Shown here piece by piece: positions 16,115 through 64,000 of a stretch of 64,000 nt of DNA. The translations under genes and the position numbers were made by a program. Origin of the DNA: an uncultured candidate division WWE3 bacterium (GTDB lineage Bacteria; Patescibacteriota; WWE3; UBA101185; UBA10185); the NCBI GenBank assembly GCA_963765125.1, contig CAVXUZ010000005.1:177816-241815 (forward strand), read 5' to 3'. The notes beneath the pieces were generated by a model. It did no database searches, was not told the origin of the DNA, and was given only the letters and a program-made list of their open reading frames with translations. Within the stretch, counting starts at the first letter, position 1. The number at the start of each line of letters is the position of its first letter.

Positions 16115-16681
16115 ATGATATTTACAGAAACATTTATAAAGGGGTTGTATACGATAGAACTCGATAAACGCGGTGATGACCGCGGTTTTTTTGCGAGAGC
16201 ATTTTGCGTAAATGAATACAACGCCAACAATTTAGATCCCAAGATTGTTCAGATGAATAACTCGTTTACAGGAGAAAAACTCACTTTACGAGGGATGCAT
16301 TATCAGTTAGCTCCTAAATGCGAGGTACGAATAGTGCGATGTTTGAAAGGTAGACTATTTGATATGTCTTTAGATTTAAGACCTAACTCCCCTACTTTTG
16401 GACAATCTTTTGGCACAGAGCTTAACGCTGAAAATAGAAAAATGATGTATATACCAAAAGGTTTTGCACATGGATTTTTAACACTCGATAACGATACGGA
16501 GATGTTTTACATGGTTACTGAGTTTTATGCGCCAGAATTTGAAAGAGTAATAAGATGGGATGATCCCAAATTCAATATGGGCTGGCCAGAAAAACCACTT
16601 CATATCTCAGAAAAAGATGCAAAAGCAGTTGATTTTAATCCGGGCTACCATTTAGAAGGAATGGAGGCATATAACTTATGA
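16115..16681 (+). CDS. RmlC-family sugar-nucleotide 3,5-epimerase
   Basis: 188 aa. The RmlC-fold motifs are present (GFFARAF, LRGMHYQ, KGFAHGF). Confidence 0.75.
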   Translation: MIFTETFIKGLYTIELDKRGDDRGFFARAFCVNEYNANNLDPKIVQMNNSFTGEKLTLRGMHYQLAPKCEVRIVRCLKGRLFDMSLDLRPNSPTFGQSFGTELNAENRKMMYIPKGFAHGFLTLDNDTEMFYMVTEFYAPEFERVIRWDDPKFNMGWPEKPLHISEKDAKAVDFNPGYHLEGMEAYNL

Positions 16682-17464
16682 AAATATTAATTACAGGCGG
16701 TAGTTCATTCACAGGATATTGGTTTATAAAAGAACTTTCGTCAGCGGGACACAAAGTCTATGCAACGTTCACAAAAAAGTTAGATGACTACACAGGCATA
16801 AGAAAACTTAGAGTTGATGAGCTTAAGAAATATTTGTACACCACTAGAAGAATGCGAATTTGGCGATACTAATTTCATTGATTCTATTAAACAAAATAAA
16901 TACGATCTTCTTTGCCACCATATGGCAATGGTCTCTGATTTTAGCTACAGAGCTATGGACTACAATATTCCTAGTGCACTTGAAGAGAGCACAAAGAATA
17001 TCGACCTCGTTATGCAGGCGTTAAAGGACAACGGATGTAAAGCAGTTTTAGTAACAGGTTCAATTTTCGAAGCAGGAGAAGGAAAAGGGCAAGGTTCAGA
17101 TAAGCCAGCCTATCCTTACGCGCTTTCAAAGACATTTACATACGAGGTTGTTAAGTATTATGCAGAGCATTATGGTTTAAATCATGGAAAATTTGTTATT
17201 TCTAATCCATTTGGTCCTATGGAAGAGCCCAAATTCACTTCATACTTGATGCAGACTTGGATTAAAAAAGAAGAAGCGGCTGTAAAAACACCTGAGTATA
17301 TAAGAGACAATATACACGTATCACTATTAGCAAAGATTTATAAAGAATTTGCAGAAGATGTATACAAAAGTAAATCACCACTCAAAATTAATCCCTCTGG
17401 TTACGTTGGAAAACAGGGAGAATTTGCAGAAAGATTTAGGGATGAGATTAAAGAAAAGGTTTGA
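16678..17464 (+). pseudogene. NAD-dependent sugar epimerase/reductase (RmlD/SDR-like) interrupted by a frameshift near 16802-16872
   Basis: Fragment 1 (16678-16872) carries the Rossmann motif ITGGSSFTGYW. Fragment 2 (16814-17464, other frame) carries the catalytic YPYALSK. Together they give a ~280-aa SDR. A third frame at 17349-17618 may hold a displaced C-terminus. Confidence 0.6.
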
Positions 17465-17621
17465 TCTTGAATGTAAATTGGCTTTACTTGAGCAAACAGA
17501 GTTTAGTGAGCCTAAAGAACTTGTAAATACAGACGTACCAAATACGTCAAAATTTAATTTTATTGAAGTAAAGGCTTGGGATGACCTTGCTGACTTCTAT
17601 AGAAAGGTGTATTTTTAAAAA

Positions 17622-18596
17622 ATGGAAGGTAAAAATATAGACAATCACCCATCAGTGGGGATTGCAATTATCACGTATTGGGACAAGAAGCATTTAGAAA
17701 AATGTATTCCCCCACTCTTAAATTCGCCGTTGAAACCAAGAGTAATGGTTTTTAATTCTACCTCAAACGATGGAACCGTCGAAGAGGCTGAGAGGTTGGG
17801 AGCGGAGACATTTGTAATACCACGTAAAAATATGAACCACGGTTCCGCAAGAGAAGCCTGTAGAAAAAGGCTTGGTACAGACATTGTAGTTATGATGACT
17901 CCTGACGCATATGCAGTGGATGAGTTTGCCATAGAAAAACTTGTCAAACCAATTGTAGAAGGAAAGGCATCAGTAGCGTATGGAAGACAGTTACCTCATG
18001 ACGACGCAAATGAGATTGCAAGATTTGGAAGAATGTTTAGTTATCCTGAACAAAGCAACATAAGAGGAATCGAACACGCAGACAAATACGGTTCTTATAC
18101 AGTATTTTGTTCTGACGCGTTTGCAGCATGGTCACAAAAAGCATTAGACGAAGTTGGAGGATTTAGATGGGTTTTAGCAGGTGAAGACACAATTGCAACC
18201 GCGATGCTTCTTAAAAAAGGGCACAAAATCGCATATGTTGCAGAGGCACAAGTAAAACATTCTCATAACTACACGGTAAAGAAAGAATTCTTTAGACACT
18301 TTGATACAGGTATTTATCGAAAACAGTGGGAAAAAGTACTAAACGTAGGTAAGGGAAGCGATCAGGGACGAGGAGTATTATACGCAAAGGGCCTTTTTAA
18401 ATACCTCTGGGGAGTTAATAAAAATATGATACCTAGAGCGTTTGCACAACTCGCAGCAGGATATCTGGGATTCTTGCTTGGTAGATTTGGTTACAAATTG
18501 ATACCAAATGACATTAAGAAAAAGATAAGCCACTCAGAATTCTTTTGGAAATCAGAAGAGTATGCAAATGGTAAGTGGAATGAACCCGCTGAATAG
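17622..18596 (+). CDS. glycosyltransferase, GT2-like (GT-A fold)
   Basis: N-terminal GIAIITYWDKKHLEKCI...NSTSNDGT and a downstream acidic motif are typical of family-2 glycosyltransferases. Confidence 0.5.
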   Translation: MEGKNIDNHPSVGIAIITYWDKKHLEKCIPPLLNSPLKPRVMVFNSTSNDGTVEEAERLGAETFVIPRKNMNHGSAREACRKRLGTDIVVMMTPDAYAVDEFAIEKLVKPIVEGKASVAYGRQLPHDDANEIARFGRMFSYPEQSNIRGIEHADKYGSYTVFCSDAFAAWSQKALDEVGGFRWVLAGEDTIATAMLLKKGHKIAYVAEAQVKHSHNYTVKKEFFRHFDTGIYRKQWEKVLNVGKGSDQGRGVLYAKGLFKYLWGVNKNMIPRAFAQLAAGYLGFLLGRFGYKLIPNDIKKKISHSEFFWKSEEYANGKWNEPAE

Positions 18597-19686
18597 TTAG
18601 TCGGTTCCATTAAAATCAACAGGGTTTGCTCGCGAAGTATTTAAGATAAGTCTTTTTAGAATTTCTGTAAAACTTACTCCATAAAGAGTTTCTAAAATGG
18701 TACCAAGTGCGACCTGCATTTCTTTTGGGCCAAATGCGCAGTTTGTGTTGTTATCAATTACATAGTATCTACCTGAACTATCGATTCTAATTTCAACTTT
18801 GCCGTAATCTTCCATCTTTGTAGCGTCAAAAGCCTTTTTAACAAGTGCTTTGAGTGTTTCATCATTATACTTTTCGTAGTGGTAACTACCGTGTGAATAG
18901 TCGTCTCTCCATTGATAGTCAAAATTAGAAAAATTATATTTTTCTGTAGAATCTTCAAATACTTTTTCAGCCATATAAACTTTTGTATGAACGCCCTGTA
19001 GAACTATTGCAGATATTTCTCTTCCGACAATAAACTCCTGCACTAAAACGGGCTGTTTGTATGTTCCTATTAAAAACTTCAATCTTTCTTGAAGCTCTTT
19101 CTCGTTTTCTACAATTGATGCTCTTGTGATCTCCACGCCTCCATGAATTGCATTTAGTTTCGTAATCAATGGATACTGCAAGCTCGTTATTTAAATGATC
19201 GTTATGCGTGTAAAAAAGCTGTGTATGAGGTACGGGAACTCCTGCTTGTTGTAAAAGCTTAGTTGTAAGAAATTTATTGTAGGTGATGGACAAACCTAAT
19301 ATATCTGCACCAGTATATGGTATATTAAGCATTTCTAAAACGCCAGGGATAGCGGGCGCAAGATCTTCGTGGCCTTTAACTGACTCAACAAGGTTAATAG
19401 CCATTTCAGGACCTTTTATTTTTAGAACCTCTGTTAAATTTTCATCGCCCGGAATAAGAATTGGCTCAATACCTAATTTTTGCAAATAGCTACCTACAAC
19501 GCCTGCTTCGTACTCTGCGCTTTTTTCTGTAATATATTGTTCTTCGGTTGGAAAATATTCGCGCTTTGCTTCACTATAAATAACCGCAACTTTCTTTGGA
19601 AGATAATCTAGTATTGGATGGTCGGCACCAGAAGGAGGTTCATCTATTTTTGAATTACCATTTATTGCAACAGGCGTTGTATCCAT
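18597..19686 (-). pseudogene. ATP-grasp enzyme (D-Ala-D-Ala ligase-like) interrupted by a frameshift near 19182-19192
   Basis: The N-terminal domain (KKVAVIYSE...GIEPILIPGDE...LNIPYTGADIL) is in the 18967-19686 frame. The central/C-terminal ATP-grasp domain (LQYPLITKLNAIHGG...PVLVQEFIVGREIS...KVEIRIDSSGRYYVIDNNTN) is in the 18597-19181 frame. The junction has no homopolymer. Confidence 0.6.
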
Positions 19687-35451: not shown

Positions 35452-37929
35452 TTGACACAACAAAGTATTATTTCTATCATCAATCCAATGAATGATTATG
35501 ATCACATTAAAATAGAAGCTAAGTGGAAAAAGAAATGGTTTGACGACAACATTTACGAGGCTGTAGATTTTTCAGAAAAACCCAAAAAATATATACTTGC
35601 AGAACTCCCCTATCCATCAGGAAAATATCTTCATGTCGGGCATATGATGCGTTATACGGTACCTGAAATATATTCTAGGTACCTTAGAATGTGTGGTTAC
35701 AACGTAATGTACCCGATGGGATGGGACTCTTTTGGTCTTCCTACCGAAACATTCGCTATTAAGGATAAGAAAACTCCGCAAGAGGTTACACGCGATGCAA
35801 CAAATAATTTTAAAATTGCAATGCAGGACATGGGGTACGCAATTGATTGGAATCGCGAAATCAATACATCAGACCCTGAATACTACAAATGGACACAATG
35901 GATATTTTTGAAATTATTCGAAAAGGGTCTTGTAGAACAAAAAGATTTACCGGTGTGGTGGTGTAAAGAATTAGGTGTTTTAGCAGATGAAGAAGTATTA
36001 TCAGACCCAAAAAGTCCATCAGGAAAAAAATCAGAAAGAGATGGTTACCCTGTTTATAGAAAAAATCTAAAACAATGGATTTTGAAAATTACTAATTATG
36101 CAGATAAACTCCTTGAAGGATTAGAAGATGTAGATTACTTTGACTCGGTTAAAAATGGACAACGAAATTGGATTGGTAGAAAAGAAGGCCTTTGCATAAG
36201 ATACCCCCTCGAAAATAATCCAGAAATAGAAATAAGATGTTTTACTACTAGAGCAGATACAAATTACGGTGCAACATTTATTGCGTTAGCTCCAGAGCAC
36301 GACTTCGCCAAAAAAATTGCAGAAGAAAATCCAGACGTTAACGCATATATTGTGAAATCTTTAGAAAAACCTGATATTGAAAGAATAGACGAGGGTAAAG
36401 AAAAAACAGGCGTTTTCACAGGTAAGTACGCGATTAATCGATTAAACAATAGAGTACTTCCTATTTGGGTATCAGACTTTGTGCTTGGTGATTATGGAAC
36501 AGGCTCGGTAGTTGGTGTACCAGCGCACGATAAGCGCGATTTTGCATTTGCGTCCAAGTATGGAATTGATATCGTGCGTGTAGTTGATAACCCTGCTGAA
36601 AGTACTCAACATGCGATATTAAAGATTGATGATGTTTTTGAAGATTATGGTATCGCGGTAAATTCAGAAATTATAAATGGTAAAGATTCAGAAACAGCAC
36701 TGAAAGCTATTTCAGAGTACTTAATAGAAAAGGGTTACGCAGAAAAAATTAAGACGTACAAACTTAGAGATCAGATATGGTCGAGACAGAGATATTGGGG
36801 AGATCCGATTCCTTTAATGTACACAGAAGACGGCAAAATTGTCGCCGATTATGATTTACCAGTAAAACTTCCTATCCTAAAAGATTTTTTACCAGAAGAA
36901 GGTAAAGCTCCATTAGAAAAAGTGCCGGCATGGTTCAATGTAAAAACAAAAGATGGAAAAAAAGCAAAGCGCGAAACGGACACAATGCCAACTTGGGCGG
37001 GTTCAAATTGGTATTTTATGAGGTACATTGATCCAAAAAATAATGAGGCATTTGCTGATTTTGAAAAGTTAAAGTACTGGATGCCGGTTGATAAATACTT
37101 CGGTGACGCCGGGCACACCACAGCGCATTTAATGTACTCGAGATTTTGGTACAAGGTCCTTTATGAGGATGGTCTAGTTCCAACACCAGAACCTTTTCAA
37201 TGGAGAATGAGCGGCGGATTACTTTTGGGAGGTGACCGTAGAAAAATGTCGAAGTCAAGACCAGAATTTGTCGTAAACCCTGAAGACGTTTTAGCCAGTT
37301 ATGGAGCTGACGCAGCACGTGTTTACCTCTCTTTTATTGGACCCTACGAAGAAACATATCCTTGGAACGAAAATGGAATAAAAGCGTGCTATCGATTTAT
37401 AAACAATGTATTTCAACTGAGCACAAAAGTTTCAAAAGAAGACGACAACAAAGAACTTGTGATTTTACTGAATAAGATGATTAAAAACATTACTAAAATG
37501 CTTGAAGATTTAAAAATGAACACGGCAGTTTCTGAATTGATGATTTATGTAAATGAGGCGAAAAAGCAAAAGCATCTCAATAAACAAAACTTTTTAGTTT
37601 TCTTAAAAGTCTTAGCGCCATTTGCGCCATTTATTACTGAACATTTGTGGCAAGAATTTAATGAATTTAAAATATGGAAAAAAGAAAATAGCATCCATCT
37701 TCATGATTGGCCACTTTTTGATAAAACTCTAGTCACTGACGACACGGTAAGGTTGCCAATTCAAATAAATGGAAAATTGAGACATGAAATTGAAGTTAAA
37801 GTTGACACACCTGAAGAAGAAATAAAAACCCTCGTGTTTTCAGAATCTGCGGTGCAAAAGTACGCAACAAAAGAAACCGTAAAGAAATTTATTTATGTGA
37901 AAAATAAAATTGTAAATTTGGTTGTTTAA
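35452..37929 (+). CDS. leuS: leucyl-tRNA synthetase
   Basis: HIGH motif (LHVGHM) and KMSKS (RKMSKSR). CP1 editing and anticodon-binding regions present. 825 aa. The true start may be the MNDYDH Met about 36 nt downstream. Confidence 0.9.
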   Translation: MTQQSIISIINPMNDYDHIKIEAKWKKKWFDDNIYEAVDFSEKPKKYILAELPYPSGKYLHVGHMMRYTVPEIYSRYLRMCGYNVMYPMGWDSFGLPTETFAIKDKKTPQEVTRDATNNFKIAMQDMGYAIDWNREINTSDPEYYKWTQWIFLKLFEKGLVEQKDLPVWWCKELGVLADEEVLSDPKSPSGKKSERDGYPVYRKNLKQWILKITNYADKLLEGLEDVDYFDSVKNGQRNWIGRKEGLCIRYPLENNPEIEIRCFTTRADTNYGATFIALAPEHDFAKKIAEENPDVNAYIVKSLEKPDIERIDEGKEKTGVFTGKYAINRLNNRVLPIWVSDFVLGDYGTGSVVGVPAHDKRDFAFASKYGIDIVRVVDNPAESTQHAILKIDDVFEDYGIAVNSEIINGKDSETALKAISEYLIEKGYAEKIKTYKLRDQIWSRQRYWGDPIPLMYTEDGKIVADYDLPVKLPILKDFLPEEGKAPLEKVPAWFNVKTKDGKKAKRETDTMPTWAGSNWYFMRYIDPKNNEAFADFEKLKYWMPVDKYFGDAGHTTAHLMYSRFWYKVLYEDGLVPTPEPFQWRMSGGLLLGGDRRKMSKSRPEFVVNPEDVLASYGADAARVYLSFIGPYEETYPWNENGIKACYRFINNVFQLSTKVSKEDDNKELVILLNKMIKNITKMLEDLKMNTAVSELMIYVNEAKKQKHLNKQNFLVFLKVLAPFAPFITEHLWQEFNEFKIWKKENSIHLHDWPLFDKTLVTDDTVRLPIQINGKLRHEIEVKVDTPEEEIKTLVFSESAVQKYATKETVKKFIYVKNKIVNLVV

Positions 37930-43648: not shown

Positions 43649-44659
43649 ATGGAAAATAATGATCTATATGAAATCGCAAAAAAGGCAATGACGCCAGGTA
43701 AAGGAATTCTCGCATCGGATGAGAGTGTAGGCTCTGCTAACAAAAATTTAGAAAAAGCTGGTATTACACCAACTGACGAGTTAAGGAGAAAATATCGAGA
43801 GCTTTTTATAAGCACTCCGGATTTGGAAAAATATATCACAGGCATAATTTTATTTGACGAAACATTTTGGCAAAACGATTCTAATGGTAAACCCTTTAGG
43901 CAAATACTAATTGAGAAAGGTATTATTCCAATAATTAAAGTAGATGAGGGAACTGTTGAATTACCAGAATTTCCGGGAGAAAAAATTACACTAGGTTTAG
44001 ATAATCTTGAACCACGTTTAGCTAAATATTATGAGAATGGTGCGAGAATGGCTAAATGGAGATCTGTCATTAAAATAAACGAGAGTTTAGGTTTACCAAC
44101 CGATGAATGTATCGAGGCTAACGCCGTGGGTCTCGCCGAATATGCACTGTTTTGCCAAAAATACGGTATTGTACCTATGATTGAGCCAGAAGTTCTTCTT
44201 GACGGGCCACATACGATTGAAAAGGCCGAAGAGATTACAAAAAGAGTACTACGAAAGGTTTTTGAGGTTTTGGGTGAATATAAAGTAGATCTTAAAGGGA
44301 TCATATTAAAAACAAGCATGGTTGTACCAGGTAGCGAGAGTAAACAAGAAATAACACCTGAGCAAATAGCTGACGCAACGGTAAGAACTTTAACCTACAC
44401 TGTGCCTGCAGAAGTACCCGGCATCGTGTTTTTATCTGGAGGGCAAGAACCAGAAGAAGCAACCCAAAACTTAAACGAAATTGCAAAAAGAGAACCTCTT
44501 CCTTGGGAAATTGCCTTTTCATACCTTAGAGCTATTGAAGGTCCTCCGGGGGTTATTTGGGCTGGTAAAGATGAGAATGTTGACGCCGCTCGAGAAGAAT
44601 TTGTAAAAAGGCTTAAAATGAATACCCTTGCAGATAGTGGAAAATATCAAGGCGAATAA
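43649..44659 (+). CDS. fba: fructose-bisphosphate aldolase, class I
   Basis: GKGILASDES (GILAADES Schiff-base-family motif), the E187-like region and the active-site Lys region. 336 aa. Confidence 0.85.
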   Translation: MENNDLYEIAKKAMTPGKGILASDESVGSANKNLEKAGITPTDELRRKYRELFISTPDLEKYITGIILFDETFWQNDSNGKPFRQILIEKGIIPIIKVDEGTVELPEFPGEKITLGLDNLEPRLAKYYENGARMAKWRSVIKINESLGLPTDECIEANAVGLAEYALFCQKYGIVPMIEPEVLLDGPHTIEKAEEITKRVLRKVFEVLGEYKVDLKGIILKTSMVVPGSESKQEITPEQIADATVRTLTYTVPAEVPGIVFLSGGQEPEEATQNLNEIAKREPLPWEIAFSYLRAIEGPPGVIWAGKDENVDAAREEFVKRLKMNTLADSGKYQGE

Positions 44660-45373
44660 TTATTTTTTAAAGTTTTCGTAAAGCACAATTGAAACCGCAA
44701 CCGAAAGATTAAGTGAATCCACTTTATTTGTGTGTTTTATTGCCACAGTATTTTCCATTTGCTCAAAATAAGGATCTAAACCACTGCCCTCATTACCAAA
44801 TATAAGTGTTGCGGGATTTTTAAACTGTACTTTACCTAATTCAAATTTACCGCCAAGAACAAAAGGATACATAATATGTTTTTGGTATTTATCTGCGTAT
44901 TGTCTGTAAGTATCAAAATATTCAAAGTTCAAATCGAAAAATGAGCCCATTGAGGATCTGACAACTTTTGGGTCAAAAATATCAATTGCAGGTCTAACCA
45001 TCGCAAGATTTTTAATTCCAAAAGCCGCCATCGCGCGAATTATGGTACCAACGTTACCCATATCAGATGGATTTACTAATAAAATATGTGTTTCATCAGC
45101 GTTTAATTCTTTTTTATATTTTCTAAAAACGCCAACCGCATGAGTATTTTCTTTCTTTGCAATCTTTGAGATTGCTCTTGGCCCATTATCAAATGTGATC
45201 CTGTGTTTTATGCACAACTCTCTAATCTTTTTTACACCATCTGATTTTTCAGAAGTATCATTAATTAGCACTGCCATAACCTTTTCAGGTGCTTTTTCAA
45301 GAAGTTCTATTGTTGGAAAAATGCCAAATGCATATGTATAGTCCAGTTGTTTCTTATAAATTCGCAAGCTCAT
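44660..45373 (-). CDS. SpoU/TrmH-family RNA 2'-O-methyltransferase
   Basis: SPOUT motifs NPSDMGNVGTIIRAMAAFG and LIFGNEGSGL. Confidence 0.8.
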   Translation of the reverse strand: MSLRIYKKQLDYTYAFGIFPTIELLEKAPEKVMAVLINDTSEKSDGVKKIRELCIKHRITFDNGPRAISKIAKKENTHAVGVFRKYKKELNADETHILLVNPSDMGNVGTIIRAMAAFGIKNLAMVRPAIDIFDPKVVRSSMGSFFDLNFEYFDTYRQYADKYQKHIMYPFVLGGKFELGKVQFKNPATLIFGNEGSGLDPYFEQMENTVAIKHTNKVDSLNLSVAVSIVLYENFKK

Positions 45374-45396
45374 GGTGTGATAATAGCATATAATGG

Positions 45397-46635
45397 CTAT
45401 TCATATCTCAATGCGTCGATAGGGTTTAATTTTGCAGCTTTGTTTGCGGGATAAAGTCCAAAAACTATACCGATAAGAGCAGAGACAAAAAACGCAATAA
45501 AAATTGAACTAACTGATAGGGTTTGCGGAAGACTCATTACTTTTGTCATTATTAAAGATACTGCAACACCTACAATTACTCCGATGATTCCCCCAGAGAG
45601 CGTCAGAATTATAGCCTCAATTAAAAACTGTGATGTAATGGCGCGTCTTTTTGCACCTAAGGCTTTACGTATGCCAATTTCTCTAGTTCGTTCAGTAACA
45701 GTAACGAGCATTATGTTCATAATCCCTATACCACCGACTACTAAAGATATTGCGGCAATTCCTGTTAGTAAGGTTGTAAATGTTTGTGTAACTTCTGTTA
45801 CAGTTTCTAAAATATCCGCCTGCGAGCTTATAGAGAAATCTGCCTCAGATACTTGCTTAAAACCATGTCTTTCTAATAAAAAGAATCCAAGTTGATTTTC
45901 TGCTGCCTCCATCATACTTTCATCAGAGGCACCTACGTAAATGTTTGATACATGGTTTACACCAAATAGAGCTTTTTGTGCCGTGAGTAGTGGGATGTAT
46001 ACAGTTTCGTCAGAATTTGCACCACCTCCACTGAATCCTTTACTTTCTAAAACTCCAATTACTTTATAGTTTCCCCCGTTTATTTTTATATTATTTCCAA
46101 GAGGTTCTTCGTTTTCAAATAAATCTTCTACCACGGATGCGCCGATTACTGCAACTTTATTCTTTAATAGGTTGTCTTGTTCTGTTATATACAAACCGTA
46201 TTCAGTATTAAGATTTCTTAAACTAAAATAGTCTTCTGTTACACCAGATACTGAGTAATTCTCGTTATTTGAACCATATGAAACCTGCATTCTTCCTGAA
46301 TATTCTGCTGCTACACTATCTACAGTTGTAAATCGGTTTGATGATTCGATTGCGAGCATATCGTCGTATGTTAAGGTAGTTGCATTTGAGGAACTTCTTA
46401 AAAATCCCTGTTGGCTTGAACCTGGCCTAACAATTAGCAGATTAGATCCTAATGCCTGGATTTGTGATTTTACGCTGACCTGGCTTGCGTAACCTAACGA
46501 CATAAGAGCAATCACTGAGCCTATCCCAATAACTATTCCTAAAATAGAAAGCCCTGTTCTTAGTTTATTTACTCTTAAAACGTCTATGCTTTCTTCAAAT
46601 AGCTCATTTATTGTCATTTTTATTCTTTCTATCAC
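45397..46635 (-). CDS. ABC transporter permease, FtsX/MacB family (paralog 2)
   Basis: Same architecture as 24600-25784. The C-terminus ends ...NPIDALRYE. Confidence 0.8.
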   Translation of the reverse strand: MIERIKMTINELFEESIDVLRVNKLRTGLSILGIVIGIGSVIALMSLGYASQVSVKSQIQALGSNLLIVRPGSSQQGFLRSSSNATTLTYDDMLAIESSNRFTTVDSVAAEYSGRMQVSYGSNNENYSVSGVTEDYFSLRNLNTEYGLYITEQDNLLKNKVAVIGASVVEDLFENEEPLGNNIKINGGNYKVIGVLESKGFSGGGANSDETVYIPLLTAQKALFGVNHVSNIYVGASDESMMEAAENQLGFFLLERHGFKQVSEADFSISSQADILETVTEVTQTFTTLLTGIAAISLVVGGIGIMNIMLVTVTERTREIGIRKALGAKRRAITSQFLIEAIILTLSGGIIGVIVGVAVSLIMTKVMSLPQTLSVSSIFIAFFVSALIGIVFGLYPANKAAKLNPIDALRYE

Positions 46636-47293
46636 TTTTTATTTTTCCATCTACAATAGTAATAATTCGCTTTGCTCGTGATGCAATTTCTTCTTCGTGA
46701 GTAATTACAATGATTGTGTGACCCTTTTTGTTTAGATCAGAAAATAAATCCATTATTTCTGCGCCCTGTTTTGTAGGAAGATTACCAGTTGGCTCGTCTG
46801 CGAGAATAATACTTGGACTTACTGCAAGCGCTCGAGCGATAGCAACTCTTTGCTTTTGACCACCAGAAAGTTGATTTGGAGTATTTTGCAATTTATCACC
46901 AAGCCCAACCGATTCTAAAAGTTTTTTACCTTTCTCAAATCGTTCTATTTTTGATATACCCGCGTATGCCATAGGCAAAGCAACATTCTTAATTGCAGAT
47001 GTTCTTGCTAAAAGGTTATACGCTTGAAATACAAAGCCAATCTCTTTGTTTCTTATTTCCGATAGTTCATCGTCTGACAAAATGCCAACATCTTTTCCAT
47101 TTAAAATATATTTTCCTAATGTTGGGGTATCTAGAGCACCTAGAATATGCATAAGTGTTGATTTACCGGATCCAGATGGTCCCATAATCGCTACAAACTC
47201 ACCCTTTTTTATGTTAAACGAAATATCATCGAGCGCTTTTGTCTCAACATCACCATTTTCATAAACCTTTGATATGTTGGAAACTTCGATCAT
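46604..47293 (-). CDS. ABC transporter ATP-binding protein (MacB/LolD-type, paralog 2)
   Basis: Walker A GPSGSGKST, signature [15 protein letters not shown], Walker [11 protein letters not shown]. Confidence 0.9.
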   Translation of the reverse strand: MIEVSNISKVYENGDVETKALDDISFNIKKGEFVAIMGPSGSGKSTLMHILGALDTPTLGKYILNGKDVGILSDDELSEIRNKEIGFVFQAYNLLARTSAIKNVALPMAYAGISKIERFEKGKKLLESVGLGDKLQNTPNQLSGGQKQRVAIARALAVSPSIILADEPTGNLPTKQGAEIMDLFSDLNKKGHTIIVITHEEEIASRAKRIITIVDGKIKSDRKNKNDNK

Positions 47294-47294
47294 T

Positions 47295-48512
47295 TTATCT
47301 TCCTGGACCCATTATAAAGCTGCCACTGGGTCTAAAACTGCTACCTTGTCCTGAACTGAAACCGCTTGTTGGAAGTGATTTAACGTAAACTTCTTGACCT
47401 TCGGATATTCCACTTACTATTTCGATGTAGTCTGCTGTTTTTATACCAGTATTAACTTCTTTTTTTCCATCCGGTGTGTCTACAGAAAGTTTTCCACTTT
47501 TTCCTCCAGATATTGCCGAAGTTGGTACGTAAGTAACATCATTCTTTTCTTCTAATATTATTTCTGCGTCTACACCCATATTTGGTAATACCAAATCTGA
47601 TTTTTCCTCAAACTTAACGATGACAGGATAATTTGTTACGCCACTAGATATTGAACCAATCTTGTCGATACCCGCAACACTTCCTATAAATACTTTTTCT
47701 TCGATACTGTTTAATGTGATTTCAACTTTTTGCCCAACACTTATTTTATTAATGTCTACTTCGCTTACGTTTAATGACGCGATCGGTGTGCCGTCTTGTT
47801 TTATTGACGCAACTGTCGCTGATGTTCTTTCTGAAAGTGAATTTGTTATGTCCATACCTTCAACAACTACAATATTTGCAATAACACCGCTACCGGGTGC
47901 GACTATGGATGGTGATTGAGCTTGGTACGACAACCACGCCTTATTTAAGTTTACTTGCGTCTGTGAAATACTAGCTTTTTGCAATTCATATTCGTTTTTA
48001 GTTGATAAATATGAATTCTCAGCTATTTTATACGATTCACGTTCGTCTTCAGACTGGTAGCTATTGTCCTCTTTTTCAGTATCAAATGAGTTTTCTGCCT
48101 CAATCACTGCACTTTCTTTTGCGTAAAGTCCATTTTTTGCGCTCTCTAACGAATTTTTAGCCGAAAGATACGATGACCACGCTTGAGCTAAACTCTCTTC
48201 ACCTGCAGCGTTTAAAGTTATCTCCATTAGCTTCTGTCCCTTAACAACAGTATCTCCCTCTTTAACAAAAACTTCTTTTACGATTCCATTTACGCTGGTT
48301 GTTACAGTTAAATAATTTGCAGTTTCAACTTGGCCAGAAACAGACACAGTAGATTTTAAATTGCCTTTCTCTGCCTTAGCTATGACTTGTGTCTCTTGTG
48401 CACCTTTTGCTTTATCGTCTGTGATTTTTTTATATATAAAAAATCCTCCAACGACAAATATTACAAAAACAGTGATTATCAATATTTTCTTGTGTTTTAA
48501 AACTTTCTTCAT
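47295..48512 (-). CDS. HlyD/MFP-family periplasmic adaptor (paralog 2)
   Basis: N-terminal TM, long coiled-coil, beta-barrel C-terminus. First gene of the second triplet. Confidence 0.65.
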   Translation of the reverse strand: MKKVLKHKKILIITVFVIFVVGGFFIYKKITDDKAKGAQETQVIAKAEKGNLKSTVSVSGQVETANYLTVTTSVNGIVKEVFVKEGDTVVKGQKLMEITLNAAGEESLAQAWSSYLSAKNSLESAKNGLYAKESAVIEAENSFDTEKEDNSYQSEDERESYKIAENSYLSTKNEYELQKASISQTQVNLNKAWLSYQAQSPSIVAPGSGVIANIVVVEGMDITNSLSERTSATVASIKQDGTPIASLNVSEVDINKISVGQKVEITLNSIEEKVFIGSVAGIDKIGSISSGVTNYPVIVKFEEKSDLVLPNMGVDAEIILEEKNDVTYVPTSAISGGKSGKLSVDTPDGKKEVNTGIKTADYIEIVSGISEGQEVYVKSLPTSGFSSGQGSSFRPSGSFIMGPGR

Positions 48513-52475: not shown

Positions 52476-53090
52476 TTATTTTGTTGGCATCCACCCGCAG
52501 GAAATTTTATTCTCTGCTGAATATATAATACACATTGCAGACTTAAATCTATAGTCCTCATCTTTTGGGGCAATATATCCAATCCCACCTCTGCCATCCT
52601 TGCTCACGTAATTAAAATCACCCAGCTCATTCACCCAACCATCATTCTCAAAAAACTTTTCAATCTTCTTCTTGCTCTCATAACTTATACGTATAGTTTT
52701 TGCATTTGAAAGTGTTAGTGTTGCATCTTGCGCTGTCCATAATGTTTGTTCTTGCGTTATTGCAAGATCGCTTAATCCTGCAACTTCTGCAAAAGTGATC
52801 ATCAGACTATCTGTTGTGTCTGGTTTAGCTGTCTCAACAATATTTTCATCTTCTTTTACTGAAATTGTAAAAACAGCAATCGCTAATCCTATTAAAACAA
52901 CAAATAGAAATATTATCATTTTTAGAGAAAGCAACTTAAACAAAATATTTCTTTTGTTGTCTTTTTTTGTTTCGTCGTAAATATTGGTCATAAATACAAC
53001 ATCTTCTTTTTGCTTATGCTTATTTTGATAAATTTTAATAAATTCGATATTTTGTGAAATTAATTTCTTAATATATGTGATTAATTCCAT
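52476..53090 (-). CDS. hypothetical membrane-anchored protein
   Basis: 204 aa with one TM after a basic N-terminus. Confidence 0.4.
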   Translation of the reverse strand: MELITYIKKLISQNIEFIKIYQNKHKQKEDVVFMTNIYDETKKDNKRNILFKLLSLKMIIFLFVVLIGLAIAVFTISVKEDENIVETAKPDTTDSLMITFAEVAGLSDLAITQEQTLWTAQDATLTLSNAKTIRISYESKKKIEKFFENDGWVNELGDFNYVSKDGRGGIGYIAPKDEDYRFKSAMCIIYSAENKISCGWMPTK

Positions 53091-53732
53091 ACATTATTTA
53101 TATCATATTGTGTAAAAGCTTCTTTTGAGAAAGTGGCAAATTAAAAACAGCCGCGTTGTTAATACTTGCGACTGTTTAAGTAATTTGTGGAAAGCAAAAT
53201 ACCTTATTCGTAGGCTCAAACGGTATAGGAATATACTTTAAACCCTTTCCTTTTCTTACTGTTGTAGCAATTTTACAGTATTTTTGTACAATTTATAAAA
53301 GTAGGATTTATACGTACATATGCCATTTTTCAACAAAAAATGATTTGACCCCAGATTATTCTATTTCTCTGAGGTCTATAGTTTATAAGAATTCTTTTTA
53401 ACTGGTTACTGTTCTTATTTGTTTAAATAACATCATACTGAGTTTTTAATGCATACCTCTTCGCTCGCCAGTGACGCCAAAATGGTAGCCCAAAAAAGAG
53501 CTTTGCATCCTTTAACGTGCTATACAAAAATCCGTCAGTACCAACATAACCTTTATATCTACCACAGTCTTGTAAAACAGATACACTCTTTTTGTTAACT
53601 ATTAAATCAATCACATACACGTACCCACGCATTGTTACTGCCTCCTTCTCAGAATTGGTTTAAGATCAGGCGTTAAATATAATTGCTGGAATTATATGCA
53701 GTTTTACCATACGAGTCAAACGCTACAGGATA

Positions 53733-53748
53733 TTGGGGTGGCTGACCG
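53733..53748. repeat. 16-nt direct repeat of the tRNA-His 3' end (att-like)
   Basis: ttggggtggctgaccg occurs identically at 53733-53748 and again at 53900-53915, where it is the tRNA-His 3' end. Confidence 0.6.
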
Positions 53749-53850
53749 AACTCGGTCACGTGTCTTTTGTCTGTAGCTCACTTTGGTGCACAACATACAA
53801 AAGCACTCGACCCCGCCTCCTTCGCTTCGCTCAGTCCGGCATTCGATCCC

Positions 53851-53900
53851 TGTAAACACAAAGAAAGCTGTCATCCACCTTCGGTGAATACCAGCTTTCT
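53851..53900 (-). terminator. rho-independent terminator immediately after tRNA-His
   Basis: agaaagctg / cagctttct 9-bp stem. On the minus strand it is followed by TTTGTGTTT. Confidence 0.45.
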
Positions 53901-59508: not shown

Positions 59509-60357
59509 ATGTATAATTACAGCGGTTATATGCAAAAAACGTATTATGAGATAAATCCACCAAAATCTCTTCTTTCTTTGGATTTTAAAGAGATTTGGCG
59601 TTATAAAGAATTACTTTTTGTTTTCAGTTGGCGAGACATAAAACTGAGGTATAAACAAACTTTTTTAGGTGTTGCGTGGGCTGTCTTTCAACCATTTCTT
59701 ACAATGGTAATATTTAGTATATTTTTCGGAAGACTCGCTAAAATTCCGTCTGACGGTGCACCATATCCAATATTTGTTTATTCAGGTTTACTTTTCTGGA
59801 CATATTTTTCAAACTCTTTAACAAACGCTAGTAATTCTTTGGTAAGCGAAGAAAATATTATTAAAAAAGTTTATTTTCCGAGATTGATCTTGCCAATTTC
59901 TGCGTCGGTAACACCAATTATAGACTTTGTATGTGCATTCTTTGTGCTTGCAGGTTTGATGATTTTTTATCATTTTGCTTTTAACATTTTGATTATTGTT
60001 CTTATACCGCTACTTCTACTTATATCTCTTCTTACAGCGTCGGGGATTGGTTTATTTCTCTCATCAGTAAATGTTAAATACCGCGATGTTCGATATATAT
60101 TACCGTTTTTTATACAAATACTTTTATACATAACGCCGGTAATTTACCCAACAAGTATTATCCCTGAAAACCTCAGGTTAGTTGCTTACATAAATCCTAT
60201 GGTGGCAGTAATAAATACAGCAAGGCACTTTATTATTGGAGGTGCCCCACTTGAGCCTATCGGATTAATAATATCTTTAGTTTGCTCAATATTGTTTTTT
60301 ACATTCGGAGTTTATTACTTTAAGAAGACAGAAAGATTCTTTGCCGACTTACTATGA
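59509..60357 (+). CDS. ABC-2-type polysaccharide/teichoic-acid export permease (Wzm/TagG family)
   Basis: Six TMs. ABC-2 signature region (FFGRLAKIPSDGAPYPIFVYSGLLFW). The stop overlaps the ATPase start (ATGA). Confidence 0.7.
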   Translation: MYNYSGYMQKTYYEINPPKSLLSLDFKEIWRYKELLFVFSWRDIKLRYKQTFLGVAWAVFQPFLTMVIFSIFFGRLAKIPSDGAPYPIFVYSGLLFWTYFSNSLTNASNSLVSEENIIKKVYFPRLILPISASVTPIIDFVCAFFVLAGLMIFYHFAFNILIIVLIPLLLLISLLTASGIGLFLSSVNVKYRDVRYILPFFIQILLYITPVIYPTSIIPENLRLVAYINPMVAVINTARHFIIGGAPLEPIGLIISLVCSILFFTFGVYYFKKTERFFADLL

Positions 60358-61565
60358 GCACACCAATTATAGAAGTAAATCACCTCACCAAAAAATATAA
60401 AATAGGTCATAAAGAGCCTTACTACTCGTTACGAGATTCTTTAGTCCAACATTTTTAAATCAAAAACAAACAGCGAAGAGTTTTTAGCACTCGATGACGT
60501 AAGTTTTGCCGTTAATGAGGGTGACGTCATCGGAATTATTGGTAAAAATGGAGCTGGTAAAAGTACATTGCTTAAAATATTGTCCAGAATTACACCACCT
60601 ACCGAGGGTAACATTATTATGCGCGGGCGTGTTGCGTCTTTACTTGAGGTTGGAACCGGGTTTAATCCGGAACTTACCGGCAGAGAAAACATTTTCTTAA
60701 ACGGTGCAATTATGGGTATGACGCGCGTTGAGATTAATAAAAAGTTTGACGAGATAGTAGATTTCTCTGGAATAGAAAAGTTTTTAGATACACCAGTAAA
60801 AAGATACTCATCAGGTATGTATGTGAGATTGGCCTTTGCTGTTGCAGCACATTTAGAGCCTGAAATATCTATTGATTGATGAGGTTTTAGCTGTGGGTGA
60901 TTCAGAGTTTCAAAGTAAATGCTTAAGAAAAATGGATGACGTATCTAAAAGTGGACGAACAATTTTGTTTGTTAGCCATAATATGGGTGCGATTCAGCAG
61001 CTATGCAATCGTACAATTCTACTTAATCAGGGTATGATTCAACTTCAAGGAGAAACAAAGTCGGTGATTGACGAATATTTTAAAGCAATAAGCGAGAGGA
61101 GCAAATCGCTGTCTATGGAGACAAGACACAGGTCAGGCGATGGCTTCTGCATCTATAGATAAAATTGAATTACCTAATATAATAAAATCAGGTTCAGAGT
61201 TCTTTATTAAAATATTCTTTCACTCAAATAATGATTCGATTTTAAAAAATTGTAGAATTGGTGTAGTTATCAAGGATTTTACTGGTAGAAAGCTAATTTT
61301 ATGTTCAACGGAAATGAAACACACGAACAGTATCAATCTAGGTAAAAGTGGGCAAGCCACTTGCCTTATTGATAGGCTTCCTTTACCAAGCGGAGACTAT
61401 TTAATAGACCTCTTCTTTGAAACTGACAAACAGGTTGCAGACTGGATTCAAGACGCTTACGTTCTTTCAATTAAAGATGGTAATTTTTATAGCGGTGCGA
61501 GACAACTTCCGGTAGGACATGAGAACACCGGCATAGTTCTTGTTGACCATTCCTGGACATTTTAA
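60354..61565 (+). pseudogene. ABC-2 export ATPase (Wzt/TagH family) with C-terminal carbohydrate-binding domain, disrupted by 2-3 frameshifts
   Basis: Reading across three frames reconstructs MSTPIIEVNHLTKKY...LVQHF|[45 protein letters not shown]...EPEI|[11 protein letters not shown]...GRTILFVSH. Shifts lie at the T5 run 60452-60456 and at ~60868. The C-terminal domain (61140-61565) is in a further frame. Confidence 0.7.
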
Positions 61566-61738
61566 AGTAGATATTTGCACAGAATATTCGTTTTTTACTG
61601 CAGTATATCTAAGGTAGTAATATAAAATATTAAAAAATGTAGTTAATTACTTTATCTGTGTAGAGTATTATTCTTTTAAATTGATTTTAGGCTCTTTTCT
61701 ATGTATTCTTGGTCTATACTGCCTTTTGTAATTAATTT

Positions 61739-62471
61739 TTGGGTTATACTTTGTTAAAAATTATATATTATGTTGACAAGGCAATAGAATATTTTTTAGC
61801 GGTTATACGTAAACTAAGATTCACATTGTTTTTTAACCTACATTACTCTCAAAACGGCGAGGACGCCGTATTGTATAGGGCATTTCCAAGGAAATATAAA
61901 GGTTTTTACGTTGATGTTGGCGCGCATCACCCGATGAGATTTTCAAACACATATTATTTTTACAAATTGGGATGGAGTGGAATAAATATTGATCCATCAT
62001 CGACTTTTTCCAATGACTTTTCAAAAATACGTTCTCGTGATATAAACCTAAATTTTGGAGTTTCAAACACCGAAGAGGTGCTTGATTACTTTATGTTTAA
62101 AGAGGCAGCATACAATAGTTTTAAGGTAGGTATAAAAGAAAAACCACAAATTTCTAAAAACACAGAATTTATTGGTGTAAAAAAAGTCGCATTACGAAGG
62201 TTAGACAATATTTTAGATGAATACCTACCAAAAAACACAAAAATTGACTTTTCTGAGCATTGACGTAGAAGAGTACGATCTCAATGTTCTTAAATCAAAT
62301 AACTGGAAACTATATAGACCTCTGTGCGTGCTTGTTGAAGACAATTCTTTTTCATTTTTGAAGATGGAACAAAGCGTTGTATATAACTTTCTTATAAGTA
62401 AGAACTATGAATTACGATTCAGAGTTGGAAATACATTAATTTTTTTCGATTCTAATGATAAAACCCTATAA
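61739..62471 (+). pseudogene. FkbM-family methyltransferase, frameshifted at a T-run (62249-62252)
   Basis: YSQNGEDAVL...GFYVDVGAHHP...SNT...GWSGINIDP in frame 1. The text continues ...KIDF|LSIDVEEYDLNVLKS in the +1 frame. Removing one T restores the canonical KIDxLSIDVEG motif. Confidence 0.6.
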
Positions 62472-63406
62472 AATACCTATATTATTTCTAATATATAACA
62501 GAGAGGATCTGTCACTTAGGGTGTTGGACGCAATTAGAAAAGTAAAACCAACCGCATTGTACATTTCAGCAGATGGCTATAAACCAGAGTTATTAAACGA
62601 TGAAGCTAATTGTAACAAAACACGTGACGCTGTTGTTAAGTCAATTGATTGGGAATGCAACGTAAAGACAATGTTTAATGACAGAAATTTAGGTTGCAGA
62701 AACTCTGTCGAAAAAGCTATTAATTGGTTCTTCGACAACGTAGAGGCTGGAATAATACTTGAGGACGATTGCTTACCAAATGAGAGTTTTTTTGTTTACT
62801 GTGAAACTCTTTTAGAAAAGTATGTGGATAATAACTCTATAATGCACATAGGAAGCGTAAATTATACTAATAGTATATTCCCTAAAAAAAATAGCTATTA
62901 CTTCTCTCGTTATCCTGATATCTGGGGCTGGGCTACCTGGAAAAGATCATGGAAACAATATTTAGGCAATATGGACTCATCTTGAATATTTTCTACATAA
63001 CGATTTAAATAGATATTTTAGTAGACCATCTGAAATTAGATATTGGCAAAACGTTTTTAAAAGGGTTAATGAGGAAGGAGTTGACTCGTGGGGGTATCGT
63101 TGGATTTACTCGGTTTGGCACGCAGGTGGAATATCTATTAAACCTTATAAGAATTTTGTTAAAAACATTGGTTTTGACAGCAGATCAACCCATACAAAAA
63201 CAGCTCCCTCTTTTATTGAGAACGCTAAGCTCGAGTCTCTTACTGGCGAAATTGAACATCCATTAAATATTAAGATAGACAAAAATCTAGACCAGAAGTT
63301 TTTTGATAAAGTATACATAAAGAAACCTGTATTTTTCTCAACTGCAAATTTATATTCAATTATTTCTGATTTTTGGAATAGGCTGAGGTTTTCTAATGAG
63401 CCTTAA
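62455..63406 (+). pseudogene. GT-A-like nucleotide-diphospho-sugar transferase, frameshifted near 62965-62985
   Basis: Frame 1 (62455-62985) ends ...WKQYLGNMDSS*. A clean protein-like continuation (THLEYFLHNDLNRYF...DSWGYRWIYSVWHAGGISIKPYKNFVKNIGFD...FSNEP) runs in the next frame to 63406. Confidence 0.5.
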
Positions 63407-64000
63407 GATATCTATCGTAACAACATGTCTAAACGAGTATTCAAAGATAGAAAATACTTTAAAAAGTGTTATTTTTCAGACTTATCCAAACTTTGAGTAC
63501 ATAGTGATCGACGGTGGCTCAACTGACGGCACTGCCAACCTTATTTCTAAGTATAAAAACAAATTATTTTACTATATTTCTGAAACAGACATTGGTATTT
63601 ATGACGCCATGAATAAAGGAGCAAAGATTGCTACGGGCGATTATCTATTATTTTTGAACGCAGGGTGATTATTTTATTAGTAAGAACAGCCTGTCTGACT
63701 TCTCTGTTAACCTTGGTAAACATAACATATTGATTGGGAATATTGTTAGTAAAGACTTTCAAAAAACCATCATCAAACGATCCAAGACTGTTAAATATTG
63801 ATACATACCTCAGTTACTCTACTCCCCCTCATCAAGCTTCATTTATAATGAGGTCGATGCTGGAAAAATGTAATTACTACGATACTTCATTTAAAATAGC
63901 TGGAGATTATGATTTCTTTCTTAAGGCAAGATTTATTCAACATGCAACTTTCTCTTATCATGACATAGACGTTTCTTATTTTGACAATAGTGGTTTAAGT
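63396..64000 (+). pseudogene. family-2 glycosyltransferase, at least two frameshifts, runs off the window end
   Basis: ISIVTTCLNEYSKIENTLKSVIFQTYPNFEYIVIDGGSTDGT...LFLNAG| then DYFISKNS... in the next frame after a GGG run (63663-65). A second shift near 63780-63800 leads into ...HQASFIMRSMLEKCNYYDTSFKIAGDYDFFL. Confidence 0.6.

Follow-up and report, generated by a model that had tools for sequence, protein, structure and literature searches.

Clustered +1 frameshifts split surface-glycan genes in a WWE3 contig and look more like local assembly error than biology

Results

Four neighbouring surface-glycan genes are split by frameshifts

Four neighbouring plus-strand genes for surface-glycan synthesis and export are each split by frameshifts at positions 60354-64000 of a 64,000-nucleotide stretch (hereafter the window) of contig CAVXUZ010000005.1 from an uncultured candidate division WWE3 bacterium, and the pattern resembles a local error of sequence assembly more than a biological feature. 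The frame layout was read from stop-to-stop segments, and the splits were tested by tblastn searches of intact homologs from 136 loci against the window. Exactly 7 shifts were counted across the Wzt ABC ATPase (3), an FkbM methyltransferase (1), a nucleotide-diphospho-sugar transferase (hereafter the GT-like transferase; 1) and a family-2 glycosyltransferase (GT2; 2), the pieces being colinear with uninterrupted homologs (Table 1). The broken genes carry the Pfam domains ABC_tran, Wzt_C, Methyltransf_21 and Glycos_transf_2. An earlier note on this DNA, which had proposed 6-7 frameshifts over consecutive Wzt/TagH ATPase, FkbM methyltransferase, GT-A-like and GT2 genes, thus agrees with the segment and tblastn count and with the Pfam and homolog assignments, and the short runs that it cited (T5 at 60452-60456, T4 at 62249-62252 and G3 at 63663-63665) are present.

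The uneven spread of the lesions, also proposed there, is borne out: 7 of the 10 shifts detected lie within 5.7% of the window (P = 2e-7, post hoc). The 60.4-64 kb locus is strongly enriched in shifts but not unique in having them: a block at 16.8-19.2 kb carries three more of the same kind, two of them in a sugar epimerase and one in an ATP-grasp ligase. Around 57 kb of the window is free of any shift, which speaks for a generally sound assembly with a local problem. The earlier statement that genes elsewhere are uninterrupted holds for the housekeeping genes that were named, among them leuS (35452-37929), and fails for the epimerase and ATP-grasp genes; both this second block and the common direction of the shifts had been overlooked.

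Table 1. Genes of the two affected blocks and the intervals in which the extra bases lie.
Feature	Position	Strand	Remarks
NAD-dependent sugar epimerase/dehydratase	16678..17618	+	two +1 shifts (S8, S10)
S8	within 16802-16869, best 16811-16835	+	epimerase
S10	17446-17453	+	epimerase
D-Ala-D-Ala-ligase-like ATP-grasp enzyme	18597..19686	-	one +1 shift (S9)
S9	about 19176-19189	-	GAGCTTGCAG on the coding strand; deletion scan
Wzm-type ABC-2 permease	59509..60357	+	intact, 282 aa; PF01061 ABC2_membrane, E=6.6e-21
Wzt/TagH-type ABC ATPase with C-terminal Wzt_C carbohydrate-binding domain	60354..61565	+	three +1 shifts (S1-S3)
S1	60443..60456	+	extra base, frame 2 -> 0; interval takes in T5 60452-60456
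S2	60867..60869	+	extra base, frame 0 -> 1, within GAAATATCTATTG; no homopolymer
S3	61144..61146	+	extra base, frame 1 -> 2, in GGCTTCTG; top HMM score 574.0
FkbM-family methyltransferase	61739..62471	+	one +1 shift (S4)
S4	62248..62253	+	extra base, frame 1 -> 2, in GACTTTTCTG (T4 run)
GT-A-like nucleotide-diphospho-sugar transferase	62455..63406	+	~316 aa corrected; one +1 shift (S5)
S5	62966..62985	+	extra base, frame 0 -> 1; permissible interval is the overlap of two open frames
Family-2 glycosyltransferase (GT2)	63396..64000, continues past window end	+	two +1 shifts (S6, S7)
S6	63662..63666	+	extra base, frame 2 -> 0, in GCAGGGTGAT; scan against two GT2 homologs
S7	63732..63798	+	extra base, frame 0 -> 1; interval is the open-frame overlap

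The Wzm/Wzt exporter genes

The intact Wzm gene lies directly 5' of the broken genes, its stop overlapping the Wzt start, and its homologs in Patescibacteria contigs are 57-58% identical. As deposited, Wzt has no uninterrupted reading frame: its four segments (60354-60455, 60445-60876, 60857-61159 and 61092-61562) are distributed over three frames and are colinear with intact homologs of 420-440 aa, with residues 14-43, 63-196, 197-289 and 307-428 of the homolog L009 matching frames 3, 1, 2 and 3 in order (tblastn). Pfam recognises ABC_tran (E=1e-21) and, on 61092-61562, Wzt_C (PF14524; E=8.2e-14). After the frames are joined, the Walker A, signature, Walker B and H-loop motifs (including VSHN) are all present, and the corrected protein of 402 aa is 56-58% identical to the database proteins P0001 and P0002 over 100% of its length. 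The features by which a Wzm/Wzt (TagG/TagH) exporter is recognised, namely an adjacent ABC-2 permease, the motifs of the nucleotide-binding domain and a C-terminal Wzt_C domain, were thus all found.

The sites in Wzt were mapped by a deletion scan scored against an HMM of 120 homologs. At S1, the open frame is regained at the top score only by deletions within the tabulated interval. At S2, deletion of A, T or C gives the top score (577.1) and regains the Walker B motif ILLIDE; consistently, the tblastn alignment to the homolog stops at 60867 and restarts at 60869, exactly one base being skipped. S3 falls at the junction between the ATPase and Wzt_C domains.

The methyltransferase and the two transferases

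The methyltransferase is divided into segments 61736-62260 and 62217-62468, which match residues 1-168 and then 164-237 of its counterpart in L004, a relative from the Paceibacterota, and the Methyltransf_21 profile is split between successive frames (positions 1-116, then 109-172). Removal of one base at S4 regains the motif IDFLSIDVEE, the peptide being identical whichever base of the interval is deleted, and the corrected protein aligns to L004 in a single frame over residues 34-240 (42% identity). The GT-like transferase consists of segments 62440-62982 and 62966-63403, corresponding to residues 3-175 and then 167-293 of the homolog L038. It is 44-48% identical to intact homologs of 300-320 aa across ~90% of the query, and once corrected it can be aligned to L004, L011 and L038 without a change of frame; its N-terminal fragment of 176 aa is P0121, a singleton in the protein collection that comes from a single contig of 482,252 bp. 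The S5 interval contains no run longer than 2. In GT2 (segments 63387-63665, 63658-63798 and 63734-64000; Glycos_transf_2 at E=3e-22 on the first fragment), correction of S6 regains LFLNAGDYF, and the deletion scan for S7 is flat over its interval, with A6 at 63761-63766 as one candidate.

A second block at 16.8-19.2 kb

The epimerase shifts were picked up by a dicodon scan, and positions 1-28 and 56-230 of the Pfam Epimerase profile are matched in different frames. Residues 1-311 of the corrected epimerase (312 aa) align to residues 1-314 of P0245 with 44% identity, through both junctions. For the ATP-grasp gene, the dicodon scan placed the switch of coding-signal frame at 19153-19160, and positions 34-203 of the Dala_Dala_lig_C profile lie within the downstream piece. 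Beside the broken genes stand intact ones: Wzm, a GT2 gene at 17622-18596 and four sugar-nucleotide genes at 13.6-16.7 kb. The remaining candidates, pairs of overlapping open reading frames at 23.7-24.6, 42.2-43.6, 51.3-53.1 and 27.9-28.5 kb, were rejected, each being two separate genes with their own starts.

All ten shifts are of one kind

Every one of the ten shifts is +1, a single extra base (two-sided P = 0.002 under equal odds for both directions), and once a base is taken out at each site, all six genes read through 1828 codons without an internal stop. The broken genes contain neither nonsense codons nor deletions, and neither larger deletions nor insertion elements. Given that 5.3% of substitutions in these genes would make a stop, 5.3 nonsense codons are expected if substitutions outnumber indels 10:1, a ratio that we assumed; none was observed (P(0) = 0.005). 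The shift sites coincide with runs of 5 or fewer bases or with no run. Of 48 runs in the region (at least 5 A/T or at least 4 G/C), one or two coincide with a shift, and the longest homopolymers, A8 (62884-62891), T7 (62440-62446 and 62787-62793) and A7 (62179-62185), are left in frame. A search for a motif common to the sites, of methylation or slippery type, returned nothing past trivial 3-mers. At 5 of the 6 well-mapped sites, the extra base adjoins a different base whose removal yields the same protein, as against 31% of random insertions (post hoc); this is the pattern expected if both alleles of a synonymous polymorphism were kept, and it is only suggestive. All six broken genes serve the synthesis of glycans or of the cell envelope, and the housekeeping genes are intact.

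Relatives and independent copies

Exact-protein look-ups returned no record for Wzm (with two alternative starts), the helicase, the 695-aa membrane protein, GT1, the GT2 at 17622 and two fragments. Among the queried proteins, only the aldolase at 43649-44659 had an exact match, in Logan runs ERR15459710 and ERR12035938, and a search for publications on these two runs found none. Protein searches gave no near-identical intact copy of the corrected Wzt or GT-like protein, and scans of genome and metagenome contig collections with Wzm yielded relatives no closer than 58% identity. These allowed the shifts to be mapped, but nucleotide comparison or dN/dS would need nearer ones. The collections contained no second copy of the locus. 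Orthologs in relatives are unsplit: among 107 homologs of the Wzt ATPase domain on other contigs, none is divided. Rfam searches, which covered the full window and in addition two gaps lacking open reading frames, gave tRNAs only; the window holds ten tRNAs, all called with ordinary three-base anticodons.

Discussion

Consensus or assembly errors as the best explanation

On balance, the ten shifts are probably insertion errors of the consensus or assembly, limited to two glycan islands that would be strain-variable or poorly covered. The extra bases may have entered at contig assembly or polishing, in blocks at 16.8-19.2 kb and 60.4-63.8+ kb. Both are surface-glycan loci, the type of region most variable among co-existing strains, where read support in metagenomes is lower or mixed; reads of a divergent haplotype could then be mis-aligned, so that both alleles of a polymorphic site are kept in the consensus and one base is added. 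An artefact of this sort should leave lesions of a single, indel-only type, each reversible by editing one base, in an assembly that is clean elsewhere, and this is the pattern found. The corrected Wzt keeps its nucleotide-binding motifs and stays within the range of its homologs, with 7 departures from 141 conserved columns (8% of the homologs have 7 or more), and its ATPase domain is unsplit in all 107 homologs. Furthermore, since Wzm, the GT2 at 17622-18596 and the four sugar-nucleotide genes are intact alongside, the shifts are grouped in blocks and not by pathway.

Collapsed alleles have been described as a source of INDEL errors and apparent frameshifts (PMC8445201), and genes broken by long-read consensus indels are also on record (PMC9262707). 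As here, single-base indels in the published cases truncate well-conserved genes, one-base corrections restore the gene models, and errors gather where haplotypes differ; however, the published artefacts are mostly homopolymer indels in both directions or differences in repeat length, whereas the present ones are ten insertions, mostly off long runs (PMC8445201; PMC9262707). Both the mechanism proposed here, be it collapsed heterogeneity or low coverage, and the sequencing platform are inferred. Long-read consensus errors typically fall at long homopolymers, and deletions are the commoner kind. Since the insertions sit at short runs or at none, unlike typical long-read errors, the retention of both alleles is conjecture, and clustered one-base insertions would be unusual if the assembly were a short-read one. 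It also counts against an artefact that the broken genes are all of glycan or envelope function, as they would also be if a surface polymer had genuinely been lost, and that truly cryptic O-antigen clusters with several lesions per gene are known.

Genuine inactivation as a rival reading

That the organism, or its dominant strain, has very recently ceased to make one surface polysaccharide is the main rival, possible but doubtful. Sugar modification (16.8-19.2 kb) and export with the transferases (60.4-64 kb) would then be gathering disabling mutations, as in Yersinia pestis. The restriction of the damage to six glycan and envelope genes, with housekeeping genes spared, is consistent with this, and surface-glycan loss is a common adaptive event, for instance in escape from phages or in host restriction. 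Ten shifts in six genes amount to several independent disabling mutations, as expected of a decaying cluster, and several hits per gene suggest that function was already lost before the later ones. The corrected Wzt, moreover, has somewhat more departures from conserved columns than its average homolog (7, against a mean of 2.6). Against this stands, first of all, the uniformity of the lesions: every one is a +1 insertion, and bacterial mutation is biased to deletions. The lack of nonsense codons (P about 0.005 at the 10:1 ratio) and of larger deletions or insertion elements points the same way, and the long homopolymers, natural hotspots of slippage, are untouched. Decay should also leave a mixed lesion spectrum and eroded motifs, but the lesions are of one type and the catalytic motifs are kept. 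Finally, the pattern tracks position rather than function, because intact genes of the same pathways stand next to the broken ones.

One of the closest precedents is the cryptic O-antigen cluster of Y. pestis, in which, as Skurnik et al. reportedly described in 2000, several genes were inactivated by small indels. The likeness is that adjacent surface-polysaccharide genes are each frameshifted in an otherwise intact genome. The lesions of the Y. pestis cluster comprise both insertions and deletions, including one of 62 bp, and were reportedly established from many isolates by comparison with a close relative in which the cluster is intact. By contrast, the present loci show one lesion type and no nonsense codons, in a sequence known from one copy.

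Unlikely alternatives: recoding and phase variation

It is very unlikely that the ten extra bases are both real and meaningful, through an insertion-specific, locally targeted process that silences glycan loci or through +1 recoding that keeps them expressed. The recoding scheme taken by itself, with expression by +1 ribosomal frameshifting or four-base decoding and the extra bases tolerated, is hardly credible. It would account for the shared direction of all ten shifts, and at S1 (TTT TAA A) and S6 (GGG TGA T) a stop directly follows a codon that allows +1 re-pairing of the tRNA, as in prfB. However, the sites are heterogeneous, without a common motif; S2, S4, S8 and S9 would have to shift several codons ahead of the in-frame stop; homologs have no frameshift at these positions, as the unsplit Wzt ATPase domains illustrate; and none of the tRNAs in the window departs from three-base anticodons.

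Equally hard to sustain is phase variation, in which slipped-strand mispairing at simple repeats would have left the genes in the off state when the consensus was taken: surface-glycan genes are classic contingency loci and short runs (T5, T4, G3) occur at three of the sites, but runs of 3-5 bases are far too short for useful switching rates, the long repeats on which switching depends (A8, T7, T7, A7) are all in frame, S2 lies in no run and S9 need not, one candidate base only extending T to TT, and three switches within one gene make no regulatory sense.

The earlier note had offered three explanations without choosing among them, of which consensus or assembly error, whether by collapsed heterogeneity or poor local coverage, fits the lesion pattern best and is, in our estimate, somewhat probable. 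Genuine decay fits poorly in its long-term form, given shifts in one direction, no nonsense codons or deletions and intact catalytic motifs, and the distribution of runs, with one or two of 48 at a shift, speaks against phase variation.

The underlying locus and its significance

If the insertions are consensus errors, the underlying locus would be an ordinary operon for ABC-transporter-dependent glycan export, predicted to encode the Wzm permease, a Wzt ATPase whose Wzt_C domain binds the cap, one methyltransferase and a pair of transferases. In the E. coli O9a type, Wzm/Wzt export O-polysaccharide with a chain-terminating methyl cap, and TagGH serves teichoic-acid export. The gene order here (ABC-2 permease, ATPase with Wzt_C, methyltransferase, glycosyltransferases) is shared with these systems, and the order Wzm, Wzt, FkbM and GT-like transferase is intact in L004. 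In place of WbdD, the methyltransferase of E. coli O9a, the locus has one of FkbM type, and the host is a candidate-phyla-radiation bacterium, which is not known to have an outer membrane. A further difference from the O9a and TagGH systems is that 4 of the 5 genes are untranslatable as deposited.

The main value of these observations is as a quality flag for the deposited contig. Taken as it stands, the contig would be given six pseudogenes, or some 16 fragments of genes, in annotation, and a metabolic reading would then wrongly infer that there is no glycan exporter; the fragments, P0121 and others, are already in protein databases as singleton 'proteins'. A uniform +1 direction together with a block-wise spread provides diagnostics that separate artefact from true inactivation elsewhere. 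Should the insertions be real, they would instead show that an uncultured lineage of episymbiont type stopped making a surface polymer very recently, a finding of moderate interest for the biology of phage-host relations and of host attachment.

Frameshifts in a glycan export locus

From 59.5 kb to the end of the window, the plus strand carries a single operon-like gene row encoding an intact ABC-2 permease (Wzm), its ATPase partner (Wzt), a methyltransferase and 2 transferases. If the genes were intact, this would be the standard layout for ABC-transporter-dependent glycan export; the same order is found unbroken in a Paceibacterota relative (locus L004), and there is nothing unusual in the gene content. 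In export of this type, as in E. coli O9a, the C-terminal domain of the ATPase recognizes the capped chain end. The Wzt_C-bearing Wzt is directly followed by the FkbM-type methyltransferase gene (60354-62471), which suggests that a methyl-capped glycan may be exported by this candidate-phyla-radiation bacterium, from a lineage in which we know of no outer membrane. One metagenome contig (L088:1664-3731) has two Wzt ATPase domains in tandem, each 55-56% identical to that of the window; the exporter ATPase appears to be duplicated there.

Each of the last 4 genes of the row is spread over overlapping reading frames. We counted 7 frame changes, in agreement with the 6 to 7 frameshifts that the earlier note had claimed for 60354-64000. 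Using the intact Wzm, we fetched 136 related loci and compared their ORFs with the window by tblastn: intact homologs of Wzt (420-440 aa), FkbM (240 aa) and the GT-A-like transferase (305-337 aa) gave ordered matches to the window pieces in successive frames, with zero residues lost. At S2, the homolog match stops at 60867 and restarts at 60869, so that exactly 1 base is skipped. To position the shifts, we scanned single-base deletions, scoring them with an HMM of 120 homologs or by pairwise comparison with homologs. After deletion of 1 base per mapped site, alignments of FkbM and the GT-A-like protein with their homologs cross the junctions in one frame; the repaired Wzt shares 56-58% identity over its full length with the best database proteins.

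Genes, reading-frame pieces and one-base frameshift sites (S1-S10), with the allele-like codon pairs at the sites
Feature	Position	Strand	Detail	Allele-like pair
Wzm, ABC-2 permease	59509-60357	+	intact; PF01061	
Wzt/TagH-type ATPase with C-terminal Wzt_C domain	60354-61565	+	pieces 60354-60455, 60445-60876, 60857-61159, 61092-61562	
FkbM-family methyltransferase	61739-62471	+	pieces 61736-62260, 62217-62468	
GT-A-like nucleotide-diphospho-sugar transferase	62455-63406	+	pieces 62440-62982, 62966-63403	
Family-2 glycosyltransferase (GT2)	63396 to beyond 64000	+	pieces 63387-63665, 63658-63798, 63734-64000; extends past window end	
NAD-dependent sugar epimerase	16678-17618			
D-Ala-D-Ala-ligase-like ATP-grasp gene	18597-19686	-		
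S1	60443-60456		T5 run included	
S2	60867-60869		ATC in GAAATATCTA, no run; Walker B ILLIDE restored	ATA/ATT
S3	61144-61146		CTT	GGC/GGT
S4	62248-62253		T4, then C; IDFLSIDVEE restored	TTG/CTG
S5	62966-62985		mapped to interval only	
S6	63662-63666		AGGGT; LFLNAGDYF restored	GGG/GGT
S7	63732-63798		mapped to interval only	
S8	within 16802-16869		in epimerase	
S9	about 19176-19189	-	in ATP-grasp gene	CTT/CTG
S10	17446-17453		in epimerase	

A second block of shifts and their distribution

A dicodon coding-potential scan of the entire window revealed 3 further shifts in the same direction at 16.8-19.2 kb, in an epimerase and an ATP-grasp gene, the halves of each Pfam domain falling in different frames. 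With both corrections made, the epimerase aligns along its whole length with P0245 (residues 1-311 to 1-314, 44% identity), a Logan protein of 650 aa with Pfam hits to GT2 and Epimerase, the first 314 residues of which match the window gene. If P0245, compared here over its epimerase part only, is a GT2-epimerase fusion, it would tie the broken epimerase functionally to the adjacent intact GT2 (17622-18596).

All shifts change the reading frame by +1, as 1 extra base does (10 of 10 in one direction, two-sided P = 0.002). They are grouped into 2 blocks, one spanning about 2.4 kb and the other about 3.4 kb, and each block lies in a sugar or envelope locus. The uneven distribution noticed earlier is borne out, with 7 of the 10 shifts lying within 5.7% of the window (P = 2e-7, post hoc) and none detected in the remaining ~57 kb by the dicodon scan, which is blind to fragments shorter than about 50 codons. 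The frameshift observation is real, and stronger than the earlier note had it. Intact genes (Wzm, the GT2 at 17622-18596 and 4 sugar-nucleotide genes within 13.6-16.7 kb) adjoin broken ones; the distribution follows position, not pathway.

Two gaps interrupt the otherwise tightly packed window. The first (53090-53900, 800 bp, beside tRNA-His) lacks ORFs of at least 90 aa, shows only weak traces of coding sequence on its minus strand and matches no Rfam family up to E<=1. The second (4850-5550, 700 bp) likewise lacks ORFs of at least 90 aa; its minus strand holds, one frame after the other, 3 short segments (5071-5265, 5193-5405 and 5335-5475; weak coding scores of 12-25), none with a Pfam or Rfam match. 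This gap may be a decayed gene or plain non-coding sequence.

Relatives and other copies

The best Wzm relatives are from Zambryskibacteria and Paceibacterota contigs (57-58% identity), which places the organism in the candidate phyla radiation (Patescibacteria). No near-identical unbroken Wzt or GT-A-like protein was found in a collection of about 15 billion proteins grouped into 5.8 billion clusters. Like the remaining gene fragments, the N-terminal GT-A-like fragment (P0121) is a singleton; all come from one contig of 482,252 bp in NCBI and ENA. Exact look-ups of the fragments and neighbouring proteins gave no match. The only recurring protein is an aldolase (43649-44659), identical in 2 Logan runs (ERR15459710 and ERR12035938); no independent sequence of either frameshifted block turned up. 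In the Logan assemblies, the 4 genes downstream of the aldolase agree exactly or closely in product length with those of the window (aldolase and neighbours, 43649-48512), one differing by start-site choice (406 versus 412 aa). Other public runs therefore contain this organism or a very close one.

Nature of the lesions

Removing 1 base per site opens all 6 genes, with 0 internal stops in 1828 codons, and the catalytic motifs are intact. As 5.3% of possible substitutions in these genes create a stop, ordinary neutral decay giving 10 indels should have left about 5 nonsense codons, assuming, after mutation-accumulation studies, roughly 10 substitutions per indel (P = 0.005 for none). Among the 48 homopolymers in 60354-64000 (at least 5 A/T or at least 4 G/C), a shift occurs only at the T5 of S1 and possibly the A6 of S7; the A8, A7 and two T7 runs are all in frame. 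No motif common to the shift sites was found. In the fetched loci, all 107 full-length Wzt ATPase domains are unsplit. A GT-A-like homolog on a low-coverage SPAdes contig of a Paceibacterota MAG (L007:14040-14130, JALNYL010000005.1) also carries a +1-type shift. It falls in an A8 run just 5' of the conserved NLGC motif and is a textbook homopolymer event, which cannot be said of most window sites.

Origin of the frameshifts

Among the 3 explanations considered earlier, a local consensus-calling failure in an otherwise accurate assembly fits best, and we lean towards it. Lesions consisting solely of inserted bases, the lack of nonsense or deletion damage, the sparing of slippage hotspots and the position-wise distribution are hard to square with natural decay or repeat-mediated switching. 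No part of a bacterial genome varies more between strains than its glycan loci, and in metagenomic data these receive lower or mixed read support; a consensus in which both alleles of a synonymous site were retained would gain 1 extra base. At 5 of the 6 well-mapped sites, the extra base adjoins a different base, and removing either restores the same protein, as retention of both synonymous alleles would give; this post hoc pattern, which arises in 31% of random insertions, is only suggestive. As a counterpoint, the usual long-read errors centre on homopolymers and are often deletions. In favour of the consensus-error reading, the literature documents INDEL errors and spurious frameshifts arising from collapsed alleles (PMC8445201), as well as genes disrupted by indels in long-read consensus sequences (PMC9262707).

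The serious rival, which we regard as possible but less probable, is a genuine and very recent loss of a surface polymer; it would be an ordinary pseudogene cluster. The broken genes are all glycan or envelope genes, and the repaired Wzt deviates a little more than its average homolog, departing at 7 of 141 columns conserved at 90% or more, which is high yet inside the homolog range. There are several lesions per gene, typical of cryptic clusters and shared with the Y. pestis O-antigen locus, reportedly such a cluster. The single lesion type and the intact genes beside broken ones speak against decay. Phase variation, the remaining earlier proposal, is very improbable, as the shift sites have no long repeats, its defining feature, and natural slippage hotspots are spared. 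Programmed +1 recoding, suggested by S1 (TTT TAA A) and S6 (GGG TGA T), is equally implausible, being conserved in no homolog and requiring a shift several codons ahead of the stop at S2, S4, S8 and S9. The most likely cause of the shifts is technical, and the finding is chiefly a caution for annotating contig CAVXUZ010000005.1.
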